Shown: positions 9,026 to 11,503 of the stretch, one piece after another | How the letters are laid out: each line of letters opens with the position of its first letter | How positions within the stretch are numbered: position 1 is the first letter of the stretch | Sequence record: OL770074.2 | Reading direction: 5' to 3' (one strand) | Length of the DNA: 64,000 nucleotides | Source: Escherichia phage vB_EcoM-RPN187 | Program-made: the position numbers and the translations under genes | Notes under the pieces: model-generated | Databases searched by the model: none | The model's input: only the letters and a program-made list of their open reading frames with translations | What the model was told of the DNA's origin: nothing

Positions 9026-9052
9026 AAAAAGCCCCAACCGTAAGGAAGGGGC
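9026..9052 (-). terminator. rho-independent terminator
   Basis: gcccc...ggggc stem (9031-9052) preceded on plus by aaaaa, i.e. followed by U-run on minus; just downstream of stop of 9059..9523. Confidence 0.6.
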
Positions 9053-9058
9053 ATTCTA

Positions 9059-9523
9059 TTATTTAATTTGTTTAGCAGACCAGATACGGTCTTTAATAAG
9101 TTTTTGGATATCTTCAACATACTCAAGGCTATGAGCGTGAGGATTATCTTTGAAGCTATGTGCTCGTGCCAGTTTCTGGCCTTCTGTTTTGATTACTAAA
9201 AGCTCTTTAAGAATTGCTTCATACTTAGAAATAATTCCTTTGGCGATATTTTTTTCTTGAGCGGCTTTAGGGTCCGCTTTTGGCGCAGGTGCTTTACCTG
9301 TAGCTTTCTGGAACAATTCACCTGATGCAGCTAGGCTTTTAAAAACTCGGCTAACAGTATTAGCATTAGTAAAACCTTCGGCTTTAAAATCTCTAATAAA
9401 ACGGAAACGTTCTTCATCAGAGGCGTCTTTGTAAGAATATTTACCTGCTCTAATTGCTGCAATCGCAGCGGCTTTTACATCTGAACTAGATTGTTCAGTC
9501 AAAAATTCAGCGTATGATTTCAT
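9059..9523 (-). CDS. internal-protein-like protein with capsid-targeting-sequence N-terminus
   Basis: ORF track 154 aa; MKSYAEFLTE|QSSSD...; Lys/Ala-rich; ATG verified 9523-9521. Confidence 0.55.
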   Translation of the reverse strand: MKSYAEFLTEQSSSDVKAAAIAAIRAGKYSYKDASDEERFRFIRDFKAEGFTNANTVSRVFKSLAASGELFQKATGKAPAPKADPKAAQEKNIAKGIISKYEAILKELLVIKTEGQKLARAHSFKDNPHAHSLEYVEDIQKLIKDRIWSAKQIK

Positions 9524-9567
9524 GTTGCTTTTCCTAAGTTAATTAACTTATCTATTTATTATTATGC

Positions 9568-9595
9568 AAAAAAGCCCCAACCTTTCGGAAGGGGC
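9568..9595 (-). terminator. rho-independent terminator closing the tRNA/stable-RNA transcription unit
   Basis: GCCCCUUCCGAAAGGUUGGGGC followed by UUUUUU on minus; near-copy of the 9026-9052 hairpin. Confidence 0.6.
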
Positions 9596-9602
9596 TATGC
9601 CT

Positions 9603-9905
9603 TGCGGCAACCTTGTCGGGGTTCCACCTGCTAAGGCAAGTGTTTGTACGAAACGCCGGGATTCGAACCCGGTTATTAAGCAGTTGACGCTACTCAATAT
9701 TTTTAAAAGGCCATATCTCGACCATATCCGAACGTTCCGTCAAAAACGCTACTCGGCTTACGGCAAAGATATTTCCTCGAATCGATAATTCTGTGCGCCG
9801 TTTCAGCTGTGATAGTAAAGAACCAGAACACAGTAAAACTGTGGGAGGAACTATACTCCAGGGAACATCAGTCCGACGACTTACCGGTAGCGACCCGGTT
9901 TCTTG
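9603..9905 (-). ncRNA. putative small stable RNA(s) downstream of tRNA-Arg, with tRNA-like T-arm
   Basis: About 300 nt with no credible ORF on the minus strand, between tRNA-Arg and a terminator. Contains a T-arm motif CCGGGUUCGAAUCCCGG (9655-9672) with possible acceptor pairing CGGAACG/CGUUUCG. T4 encodes stable RNA species at the same place (memory). Boundaries not resolved. Confidence 0.3.
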
Positions 9906-9907
9906 TT

Positions 9908-9983
9908 TGGTCGAGGCAGTAGGGGTCGAACCTACGACCTAGGACTTAGAAGGTCCTTGCTCTTCCTTCTGAGCTATGCCTCG
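9908..9983 (-). tRNA. tRNA-Arg (anticodon UCU)
   Basis: Hand-folded: acceptor CGAGGCA/UGCCUCG, D-arm GCUC..GAGC, anticodon loop CUUCUAA, T-arm GUAGG-UUCGACC-CCUAC, CCA encoded. Confidence 0.85.
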
Positions 9984-9987
9984 GATT

Positions 9988-10062
9988 TGGCGGACATGCA
10001 TGGATTCGAACCATGGACCAATTGATTAACAGTCAACTGCTCTACCACTGAGCTACACATCC
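9988..10062 (-). tRNA. tRNA-Asn (anticodon GUU)
   Basis: Hand-folded: acceptor GGAUGUG/CAUGUCC (two G-U pairs), D-arm UAGCUCAGUGGUAGAGC, anticodon loop CUGUUAA, T-loop UUCGAAU, CCA encoded. Confidence 0.75.
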
Positions 10063-10066
10063 AAAT

Positions 10067-10153
10067 TGGTTGGGAGTGATGGAGTCGAACCACCTGAGTC
10101 GCAATGACAATGGATTTACAGTCCACACCGCTACCTCTACGGGATAACTCCCC
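10067..10153 (-). tRNA. tRNA-Tyr (anticodon GUA), long variable arm
   Basis: 87 nt; anticodon stem GUGGA/UCCAU with loop CUGUAAA; T-arm GGUGG-UUCGACU-CCAUC; CCA encoded; 1:72 is a G-A mismatch so the 5' end is approximate. Confidence 0.7.
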
Positions 10154-10162
10154 AAATTAATT

Positions 10163-10237
10163 TGGTGGCCCTGGGTGGAATTGAACCACCATCTGGCGAT
10201 TATGAGTCGCTTGCTTGAACCTTCCAGCTACAGGGCC
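10163..10237 (-). tRNA. tRNA with anticodon CAU (elongator Met or lysidine-type Ile2)
   Basis: Acceptor GGCCCUG/CAGGGCC, anticodon loop CUCAUAA, T-arm GGUGG-UUCAAUU-CCACC, CCA encoded. Occupies the slot of T4 tRNA-Ile in the conserved order. Confidence 0.75.
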
Positions 10238-10238
10238 T

Positions 10239-10314
10239 TGGTGCTGATTGACGGAATCGAACCACCGACCTTCTCATTACAAGTGAGTTGCTCTACCTAC
10301 TGAACTAAATCAGC
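10239..10314 (-). tRNA. tRNA-Thr (anticodon UGU)
   Basis: Acceptor GCUGAUU/AAUCAGC perfect, anticodon loop CUUGUAA, T-loop UUCGAUU, CCA encoded. Confidence 0.8.
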
Positions 10315-10319
10315 AAAAC

Positions 10320-10409
10320 TGGCGGAGGCGATAGGATTTGAACCTATGAGTCGCCGGAGCGACTGCCGGTTTTCAAGACCGGTGCATTAAACCACTCTGC
10401 CACGCCTCC
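10320..10409 (-). tRNA. tRNA-Ser (anticodon UGA), long variable arm
   Basis: 90 nt; acceptor GGAGGCG/CGCCUCC, anticodon stem CCGGU/ACCGG with loop CUUGAAA, T-loop UUCAAAU, CCA encoded. Confidence 0.85.
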
Positions 10410-10411
10410 AG

Positions 10412-10485
10412 TCTCCATACAAGGATTTGAACCTTGGACCTCCTGATCCCAAATCAGGCGCTCTACCAAACTGAGCTACACGGAG
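10412..10485 (-). tRNA. tRNA-Pro (anticodon UGG), CCA not encoded
   Basis: Acceptor CUCCGUG/UAUGGAG, D-arm UAGCUCAGUUUGGUAGAGC, anticodon loop UUUGGGA, T-arm CAAGG-UUCAAAU-CCUUG. Confidence 0.8.
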
Positions 10486-10495
10486 TAAATTAAAT

Positions 10496-10569
<74 letters not shown>

Positions 10570-10574
10570 AAATT

Positions 10575-10661
10575 TGGTGCGAGAAGTGGGACTCGAACCC
10601 ACAAGGAAATCATTCCGCAGCATTTTAAGTGCTGTGCCTTTACCAATTTGACCATTCTCGC
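10575..10661 (-). tRNA. tRNA-Leu (anticodon UAA), long variable arm
   Basis: 87 nt; acceptor GCGAGAA/UUCUCGC, anticodon stem CAGCA/UGCUG with loop CUUAAAA, T-arm GUGGG-UUCGAGU-CCCAC, CCA encoded. Confidence 0.85.
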
Positions 10662-10662
10662 G

Positions 10663-10735
10663 CTGGGAATAAAGGACTCGAACCTTTGCATCCTGGAATC
10701 AAAATCCAGTGCCTTACCAACTTGGCTAATTCCCA
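10663..10735 (-). tRNA. tRNA-Gln (anticodon UUG), CCA not encoded
   Basis: Acceptor UGGGAAU/AUUCCCA, anticodon stem CUGGA/UCCAG with loop UUUUGAU, T-arm AAAGG-UUCGAGU-CCUUU. Confidence 0.8.
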
Positions 10736-10832: not shown

Positions 10833-11120
10833 TTACCATTTATGATAATACATATTTACGATGCATTCAAGACCCAAAGGATTCTTGAAAATATCATATT
10901 CAAGAGGACCTTTTTCCGTTTCAATAAAGAAATCAAAGTTAACTGTGTTAAATTTACGGTCTTCCTTTACTAATTTAACTTGAGAAGATGAACGGTCAAT
11001 GTAAACCTTTTCAACTTCAAAACATGTTAAAATGCCATAATCATCAATCAAGGCTTTAGCCGCATCTTGATCATATTTATATCCATTTTCAATGGATGAT
11101 ACTTTCGCATAAAGAATCAT
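10833..11120 (-). CDS. hypothetical protein
   Basis: ORF track 10833..11126 starts at TTG; ATG at 11120 with GAAGGT SD. Confidence 0.4.
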   Translation of the reverse strand: MILYAKVSSIENGYKYDQDAAKALIDDYGILTCFEVEKVYIDRSSSQVKLVKEDRKFNTVNFDFFIETEKGPLEYDIFKNPLGLECIVNMYYHKW

Positions 11121-11122
11121 TA

Positions 11123-11503
11123 TCAACCTTCATCAACAATAGTATGCGTATTGGCATTTACAATTTGCCACCAATCAAAGAGATTAGAACCATACATCAG
11201 TTTGTTTTCATTTTCTTTGATAATATCACGGAGTTCATCTTCAGTGGCGGCTTTCGCGATTAAATCAGCATATCCACCACGAGGATAATAATTATCACCT
11301 GCAAAAAGTAAAAAGTTTGGTTTAATGTTATTGAACTCTTCAAGAGTAATAACTTTTCCTGACGGTTGAACAATCTCTACATATTTATATCCCAATTTTT
11401 GAGCAGCATCTACTGCTTCAAGCAAAGTATCATGAGCCCATCCAATTTGACAACCTGGCTTTTCAGATGGATTAGCCTGATAATCCGCATACACTTTGTA
11501 CAT
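11123..11503 (-). CDS. hypothetical protein
   Basis: ORF track 11123..11542 starts at TTG; ATG at 11503 with AAAGGTGA SD gives 126 aa (MYKVYADYQ...). Confidence 0.4.
   Translation of the reverse strand: MYKVYADYQANPSEKPGCQIGWAHDTLLEAVDAAQKLGYKYVEIVQPSGKVITLEEFNNIKPNFLLFAGDNYYPRGGYADLIAKAATEDELRDIIKENENKLMYGSNLFDWWQIVNANTHTIVDEG

Follow-up and report, generated by a model that had tools for sequence, protein, structure and literature searches.

What is encoded in the stretch of about 300 nucleotides (nt) that separates tRNA-Arg from a terminator in the genome of Escherichia phage vB_EcoM-RPN187 (record OL770074.2)? The 64,000 nt analyzed are called the window throughout. The original prediction had marked positions 9603-9905 as non-coding, had noted a tRNA-like T-arm there and had considered homologues of two stable RNAs of phage T4 or a split or degenerate tRNA. 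We found two RNA genes on the minus strand, the orthologues of T4 rnaD and rnaC, at the 3' end of a tRNA operon, and a tRNA-like four-helix fold for rnaC. For identity, operon context and rnaC fold taken jointly we estimate a probability of about 0.9. The marked extent is no single element; it covers two distinct RNA genes, rnaD and rnaC, and in addition ~44 nt of 3' trailer.

Orthologues of T4 rnaD and rnaC

The species 1 and species 2 RNAs of T4 have been known since the 1970s. The T4 record NC_000866 annotates two misc_RNA genes right after tRNA-Arg, rnaD (119 nt) followed by rnaC (139 nt), just as the original prediction had stated for this place. The RNA ends in the window were transferred from this annotation by pairwise alignment. 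The window belongs to a Tequatrovirus (T2/T4-like) genome. The 351 nt 3' of tRNA-Arg showed 100% identity to Escherichia phage AV112 and ~97% to phage T2, and matched 818 T4-like phage records. In most of these no feature is annotated here, or a "hypothetical protein" is given. At the base level rnaC gave a full-length ungapped match to T4 rnaC (NC_000866 70908-71046) with 137/139 identical positions. Both have the same length and the same place, which in the window is the 3' end of the tRNA cluster, past rnaD and ahead of the terminator, on the same strand. The only two substitutions (nt 66 C/U and nt 105 G/A, with nt 1 of rnaC at window position 9785) fit the fold described below, with the change at nt 105 converting U-A to U.G. 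The window's rnaD lies immediately 5' of rnaC across a 6-nt spacer. With T4 rnaD (NC_000866 71053-71171) it shares the 5' hairpin, the basal stem, the 3' segment and its place between tRNA-Arg and rnaC. Near-identity extends over ~47 nt at the 5' end and ~25 nt at the 3' end, while the central ~45 nt are diverged and of the T2 type (98% identical to T2). Furthermore, the length differs (~115 nt versus 119 nt in T4), as does the 3' end (CACAG versus CACCA in T4).

Matches to rnaC were obtained in 743 phage records, a few of which label the match rnaC; identity was at least 99% in 490 of these and 95-99% in a further 190. For rnaD 741 records were matched, 171 of them covering at least 80% of the window variant. 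Rfam scans, both at the gathering threshold and by E-value, yielded no family for rnaC or rnaD. Both genes are already known as T4 features, and their recurrence in a T2/T4-like genome is expected. Judged from their sequence, the two genes of the window encode RNAs of the T4 type, whose stability was shown for T4 in the literature. They were described as stable RNAs of unknown function (PMC3014915, 2010), confirmed by Northern blot for T4 and classed as late RNAs, again of unknown function (PMC9697503, 2022). When a T4-like phage was adapted to a semi-permissive host, one single-nucleotide polymorphism (SNP), located within rnaD, arose convergently in each of the three lines (PMC12685909, 2025), and this report likewise gives the function as unknown. 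Our literature searches, which did not cover the 1975 sequencing papers, found no functional or structural study of these RNAs.

Fold, covariation and tRNA likeness

Homologues were collected by pattern scans of viral and metagenomic contigs plus blast matches in annotated phages. The resulting rnaC set comprised 22-24 distinct sequences from at least ten T4-like genera (Tequatrovirus, Mosigvirus, Gaprivervirus, Dhakavirus with phage WG01, Karamvirus, Tegunavirus, Kanagawavirus, Moonvirus and Marfavirus, together with Edwardsiella phages). MAFFT alignments with RNAalifold and explicit pair counts converged on one fold, consisting of an acceptor-like stem, a canonical T-arm, a long arm of ~70 nt and a 10-bp hairpin (Table 1); the comparative covariation analysis that had been suggested at the outset thus supports four helices. 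The minimum free energy of the single rnaC sequence gave z = -4.55 versus shuffles. RNAalifold found compensatory changes in 27/42 pairs. By explicit counting 93.6-93.8% of cells were paired; over 24 distinct sequences the value was 93.6%, and 27/44 pairs were changed on both sides. In controls with partners shifted by 1-3 columns 36-46% of cells were paired (37-46% for the 24 sequences), and none of 500 shuffles reached the observed values.

All four helices contribute to this signal. In the acceptor-like stem an A-U pair is replaced by G-C in 11/24 sequences. Yersinia phages have U-A and C-G where two U.U positions are otherwise conserved, giving a perfect 7-bp stem. A possible acceptor pairing had been noticed before, and two candidates for it exist. 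We concluded that the 5' and 3' termini of rnaC itself make up the stem, because compensatory changes were found there and none in the internal pairing. Helices 3-5 of the long arm showed compensatory changes in 16/19 pairs, and at least four unrelated stem sequences were found with the same layout, with a total rnaC length of 140-144 nt in those lineages. Compensatory changes were also found in 9/10 pairs of the second hairpin and in two pairs of the T-arm stem (G-C to U-A and C-G to U-A). Changes which restore pairing argue for selection on rnaC itself and not for a decaying relic. The T-arm CCGGGTTCGAATCCCGG of the original prediction is present as a single minus-strand occurrence, with 0 expected by chance. 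Of its repeat GAGTAGCGT the minus strand has two copies (9746-9754 and 9687-9695) versus an expectation of 0.22, and 1/100 shuffles reached two copies. Two candidates were rejected. A K-turn at the conserved bulge was discarded by eye, as the non-bulged strand is without the required G.A/A.G pairs, and GAGUAGCGU as a functional repeat is probably incidental, since other genera, outside T4-type sequences, do not keep its second copy.

The two loops L1 and L2 are exact reverse complements of each other, with 6/6 complementary positions in all 22-24 distinct sequences. The only substitutions seen are compensated, namely UUGAUG/CAUCAA in Tegunavirus and UUGGCG/CGCCAA in Marfavirus, and the loops stay constant even where the underlying stems are unrelated. 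Constrained folds of all types gave ~20 bp below a 3-4-nt bulge, an apical stem of 4-6 bp and the loop, beside a hairpin of 10 stem positions. Apical stem, kissing helix and hairpin would add up to ~6 + 6 + 10 = 22 bp, compared to ~20 bp plus internal loops for the basal long arm. These matching lengths therefore make an intramolecular fold-back at the 3-4-nt bulge geometrically plausible, and the pairing of L1 with L2 may take place within one molecule. A kissing dimer between two rnaC molecules may be the alternative.

A covariance model built for rnaC scored every copy at 106-165 bits (window copy 162.7 bits); its only other matches were genuine tRNAs, aligned end to end at 12-26 bits. A secondary match of 115 nt in homologue L020 was discarded as the junction of two adjacent tRNAs. 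When the model was compared with tRNA-Ser, acceptor stem, T-arm and tail aligned, with U-A-C-A falling on N-C-C-A and the second hairpin in register with the variable arm of class II. Most lineages encode the tail UACA; Tegunavirus has UUCA and Marfavirus UCCA. Furthermore, rnaC of Karamvirus lies between tRNA-Trp and tRNA-Gly with tRNA-like spacers of 5 nt and 3-6 nt, and in Tegunavirus tRNA-Trp follows 6 nt downstream. ARAGORN and RF00005 gave no match on 9647-9785, where D-arm and anticodon arm with 7-nt loop are absent. ARAGORN found no transfer-messenger RNA (tmRNA) in the window, and the permuted tmRNA model gave only a partial match, of 10 bits, in its T-loop. At the Rfam gathering threshold only the 10 tRNAs of the whole window passed, and sub-threshold matches in 9450-10000 were weak. 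The rnaC-like pattern gave no match in 185,579 bacterial and archaeal genomes at the stringency of the scan. The suggestion of a split or degenerate tRNA thus survives in part: rnaC is tRNA-like in its acceptor stem, T-arm and N-x-C-A tail; it has no anticodon arm and is not a split tRNA. For rnaD, which shows no tRNA features and is not tRNA-like, the suggestion had to be dropped.

The structure of rnaD was deduced from 19 distinct variants. The closing pair of its 5' hairpin covaries (A-U in 9, G-C in 8 and G-U in 2 sequences), and the loop GUCGCUA is invariant. The basal stem, GUCGUCG with CGGCG-AC, is invariant as well, while the hypervariable apex occurs in at least three versions, the window carrying that of T2. 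With moderate confidence, rnaD consists of a 5' hairpin and a long stem with a hypervariable tip. A complementarity of 5 bp between the loop GUCGCUA and UAGCG in the repeat GAGUAGCGU was seen by eye and is too short to weigh.

Table 1. Features of the rnaD/rnaC locus in the window (nt numbers refer to rnaC)
Feature	Position	Strand	Description
rnaD orthologue (T4 species 2 RNA)	9792..9906	minus	~115 nt, T2-type central domain; from alignment to T4 rnaD
rnaD 5' hairpin	9883..9899	minus	ACCGG, 7-nt loop GUCGCUA, CCGGU
Spacer rnaD/rnaC	9786..9791	minus	GAAUUA, 6 nt; removed in processing according to the T4 annotation
rnaC orthologue (T4 species 1 RNA)	9647..9785	minus	139 nt, tRNA-like four-helix RNA; from alignment to T4 rnaC
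Acceptor-like stem, 5' strand	9778..9784	minus	nt 2-8, CGAUUCG, pairs with nt 131-137
Long arm	9708..9777	minus	nt 9-78, irregular hairpin; 3-nt bulge nt 34-36; apical stem nt 37-42/49-54
Loop L1 of long arm	9738..9743	minus	nt 43-48, UUGACG; reverse complement of L2
A-rich single strand			nt 79-86
Second hairpin	9674..9699	minus	nt 87-112, 10-bp stem and 6-nt loop; aligns to class-II tRNA variable arm
Loop L2	9684..9689	minus	nt 97-102, CGUCAA; partner of L1
T-arm	9656..9672	minus	nt 114-130, CCGGG, UUCGAAU, CCCGG
Acceptor-like stem, 3' strand	9649..9655	minus	nt 131-137, CGUUUCG; then U-A-C-A where a tRNA has discriminator and CCA
3' trailer	9596..9646	minus	small hairpins; beyond the end of the mature RNA as annotated in T4
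Intrinsic terminator of the tRNA/rnaD/rnaC unit	9568-9595	minus	hairpin GCCCCUUCCGAAAGGUUGGGGC and U6; folds as predicted
tRNA-Arg(tct)	9908-9983	minus	ARAGORN; Rfam tRNA model 66.9 bits; 3'-most of 10 clustered tRNAs, upstream neighbour of rnaD

Every rnaD-bearing locus was found to carry rnaD immediately 5' of rnaC, and among the loci compared rnaD was absent from Karamvirus, Tegunavirus, Kanagawavirus, Moonvirus and Marfavirus. In phage JS98 (Dhakavirus) blastn matches were confined to the terminator and the end of tRNA-Arg, and the rnaC model found just tRNAs, both RNAs being absent. JS98 (L007 604-836) keeps tRNA-Arg and a similar terminator without rnaC/rnaD, and Dhakavirus WG01 (L036) has both; the pair was therefore lost or gained within a genus. 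The Marfavirus copies from Klebsiella phages (L018 1726-1868, L019 12187-12328, L043 401-542) end in a true U-C-C-A and are followed by a protein-coding gene, not by a tRNA or terminator. In several records the 3' ~95 nt of rnaC are deposited as "tRNA-Met" or "tRNA-OTHER", as in Enterobacter phage PG7 (KJ101592; L004 651-745), SonariX (L039 446-540) and vB_EcoM_G9062 (H50). These entries look like mis-annotations of rnaC, some copies of which ARAGORN calls as Met, Phe or "Stop". The T-arm of the window's rnaC carries the T-arm consensus and could be a putative target of SegB in mixed infections with segB-positive phages.

Operon context, proposed processing and alternative readings

Ten minus-strand tRNA genes spanning 9908-10735 were called by ARAGORN and Rfam, and the neighbouring tRNA-Arg was confirmed. 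Transcription traverses the whole tRNA cluster and ends past the species I RNA gene, yielding a primary transcript from which the tRNAs and the species I and II RNAs derive (PMC2330249, 2008, summarizing earlier work). The terminator that had been reported at the end of the region folds and is kept in relatives, its stem varying compensatorily; a simple terminator scan missed it because of an internal UU/UU mismatch. Ahead of it the trailer (z-score of the fold -2.76) contains the hairpins CACUUGC-CUUA-GCAGGUG (9625-9642), AACC...GGUU and GCC-GCAA-GGC. The first shows one compensatory change from G-C to A-U, in homologue L033, and the GCAA hairpin is deleted in homologues L033 and L034. Two late-promoter motifs TATAAATA were found upstream on the same strand (11074-11081 and 11382-11389), consistent with late expression.

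Further observations concern the surroundings. The cluster 9908-10735 encodes tRNAs for Gln, Leu, Gly, Pro, Ser, Thr, a Met/Ile-type CAU, Tyr, Asn and Arg and is without segB; T4, for comparison, has 8 tRNAs with segB between Ile and Arg, and the 10-tRNA, segB-free layout fits the T2L-type arrangement (PMC2330249). Compared to the adjacent, nearly identical rnaC, the tRNA-Arg genes of the window and of T4 align poorly; they may be isoacceptor replacements. In the Tequatrovirus relatives L008, L014, L015, L027, L029 and L031 a small open reading frame (ORF) of ~360 nt lies between tRNA-Arg and rnaD, and relative L026 has a different one of ~550 nt there. The stop codon of the inserted ORF abuts the conserved rnaD start (...UAAGAAACCGGG), and the insert is absent from the window. 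As some relatives have an ORF in between, adjacency of rnaD to tRNA-Arg is not required. The T4 sequence downstream of rnaC differs from that of the window. There, a second terminator GCCCCUUCCUUACGGUUGGGGC with a U run was found at 9026-9052 (minus) after a 154-aa ORF (9059..9523), with a stem nearly identical to that of terminator 9568-9595 (GCCCCUUCCGAAAGGUUGGGGC and U run). This ORF is thus flanked by two copies of one terminator and may be an inserted cassette. The T4 late-promoter core TATAAATA occurs in 20 copies in the window versus 8.0 +/- 2.9 expected, most of them on the plus strand at 37-59 kb, consistent with a late-gene block there.

In the processing scheme that we propose, the tRNAs, rnaD and rnaC would be transcribed as a single long precursor ending at terminator 9595..9568. 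In the fold described above the acceptor-like stem stacks on the T-arm, with the long arm replacing D and anticodon arms in a tRNA-like four-way junction. An acceptor/T-arm module is what RNase P and the enzymes of tRNA 3'-end maturation recognize in their substrates. We infer that rnaC is excised and stabilized by the host tRNA-maturation machinery because of this module and because of its position in a tRNA slot with tRNA-like spacers in Karamvirus. The same cleavages would release rnaD, which would then be trimmed exonucleolytically to its basal stem.

Two alternatives assign a conventional gene to the locus. An ATG-initiated ORF of 74 aa is present on the plus strand (9564..9788), and in many GenBank records the corresponding stretch, rnaC and rnaD included, is covered by hypothetical proteins. 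The original prediction had named its expression as evidence that would overturn the RNA interpretation. In T4 and at least seven other relatives this frame is interrupted by an in-frame stop, arising from a G/A polymorphism that keeps the RNA pairing (U.G to U-A). Most relatives are without the ATG, homologues L011 and L014 are frameshifted, and a tRNA gene takes the place of the downstream half of the ORF in Karamvirus and Tegunavirus. It also runs antisense through terminator and T-arm, and substitutions track RNA pairing, not codon positions. The ORF is not a gene, and that it encodes a protein deserves next to no credence; on the minus strand, as had been stated, no convincing ORF exists either, the longest inside the region having 42-49 aa. 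It is very improbable as well that rnaC is a genuine, chargeable long tRNA in a form of ~95 nt, with an acceptor made from the internal ACGGAACG (nt 46-53) and the 3' end. In its favour, the internal pairing with CGUUUCGU can form in 88.5% of cells, and the Marfavirus copies end in UCCA. ARAGORN reads the 3' 95 nt of the PG7 copy as tRNA-Met(cat) and other copies as Phe or "Stop", and Rfam gives a weak match, 16.6 bits, to tRNA-Sec. Nevertheless, this pairing is no better than shuffles and breaks in fGh-Ecl04, ZX13, L010 and the Yersinia phages, and ACGGAACG is already engaged in the apical stem, where 5/5 pairs covary. The proposed anticodon changes or vanishes between lineages, ARAGORN calls no tRNA on the window's own rnaC copy, and mature T4 rnaC keeps its 45-nt 5' part.

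The remaining alternatives accept the RNAs and deny them a role of their own. Were rnaC and rnaD functionless leftovers, a decayed tRNA gene plus spacer persisting via processing enzymes and nuclease-resistant folds, the lack of a known phenotype or partner after 50 years would be understandable, as would the resemblance of rnaC to a derivative of a class-II tRNA, the missing rnaD in Karamvirus, Tegunavirus and others and the loss of both RNAs in JS98. We attribute little probability to this explanation. The rnaC sequence is at least 95% identical in 680/743 records across several genera, its changes restore pairing and loop complementarity, indicating selection on the fold, lineages with a different long-arm sequence retain length and layout, and the rnaD SNP arose convergently in all three adapting lines (PMC12685909). 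It is also rather unlikely that both RNAs act only in cis, in processing, 3'-end protection or termination, with the released RNAs as by-products. The Tequatrovirus copies do sit at the operon 3' end just ahead of the terminator, a tRNA-like module can direct RNase P cleavage, and the trailer hairpins are conserved. However, rnaC of Karamvirus and Tegunavirus lies mid-cluster or upstream of other tRNAs and not at a 3' end, a processing signal would not need a conserved long arm and a covarying loop contact, and the T4 RNAs accumulate as abundant discrete species (PMC9697503).

We are aware of a number of points that count against the reading of the two genes as selected, folded RNAs matured like tRNAs. 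The acceptor-like stem has two U.U mismatches in all lineages except Tegunavirus and is paired in 73-76% of cells. Covariance-model alignments are fitted to the model, with which the MAFFT alignments agree. The loop-loop covariations amount to two evolutionary events only, in independent lineages. For rnaD the single-sequence fold is no better than shuffles (z = -1.0), its basal stem is invariant, and the fold rests on energy and few covarying pairs. The RNA ends depend on the T4 annotation and may be wrong by 1-2 nt; U1, the 5' end given there, precedes the first acceptor pair by one nt, and RNase E or another nuclease may make the 5' cut of rnaC. T4 phages with deletions of the tRNA region are viable on laboratory hosts, and our literature searches yielded no binding partner or phenotype for rnaC/rnaD.

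For the function of rnaC we can offer a speculation, in our view the likeliest role yet still doubtful, in which rnaC would mimic a tRNA and, via its acceptor/T-arm, occupy or recruit some tRNA-binding factor while presenting the locked long arm. An extended version, unlikely in our estimate, would have rnaC as a closed mimic, its long arm folded back and held to the second hairpin by a 6-bp kissing lock, that occupies or diverts a host factor recognizing acceptor and T-arm, with rnaD tuning the interaction host-specifically. In that version a tRNA-targeting anti-phage nuclease, a CCA-adding or repair system or a translation factor may be the counterpart. A host-specific role of rnaD is hinted at by the convergent SNP (PMC12685909), and rnaD as a host-range-modulating accessory RNA is a speculative proposal. 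If true, the extended version would give a function to RNAs of the 1970s and add a class of phage counter-defence RNA. The structural elements found here, namely the acceptor stem formed by the termini, the tandem U.U, the N-x-C-A tail, the long arm of constant geometry and the covarying loop contact, give concrete handles. Moreover, most deposited genomes leave rnaC/rnaD unannotated or mis-annotated, and hundreds of records could be corrected with a covariance model. The structural refinements do not amount to a novel type of element; they provide useful leads on an old question.

Comparison with known tRNA-like RNAs

Mimicry of acceptor and T-arm is known from tmRNA, the YrlA/Y RNAs, the mascRNA of MALAT1 and the tRNA-like structures of plant viruses, which use RNase P, the CCA enzyme and tRNA-binding proteins for processing, stability and function. 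With none of these does rnaC share sequence or covariance-model similarity (no Rfam match), and it is without the tag reading frame of tmRNA, the Ro-binding stem of Y RNAs and a pseudoknotted acceptor. Its closest relatives in form are the class-II tRNAs such as tRNA-Ser. From these rnaC differs by a hairpin of ~70 nt in place of D-arm and anticodon arm, by the tandem U.U in the acceptor, by A, U or C at position 74 and by a loop-loop contact that replaces the D-loop/T-loop logic. In common with them it has a 7-bp acceptor on a 5-bp T-stem, the UUCGAAU loop, a hairpin just 5' of the T-arm, a tail in the N-CCA position and a gene in a tRNA cluster with tRNA-like spacers.

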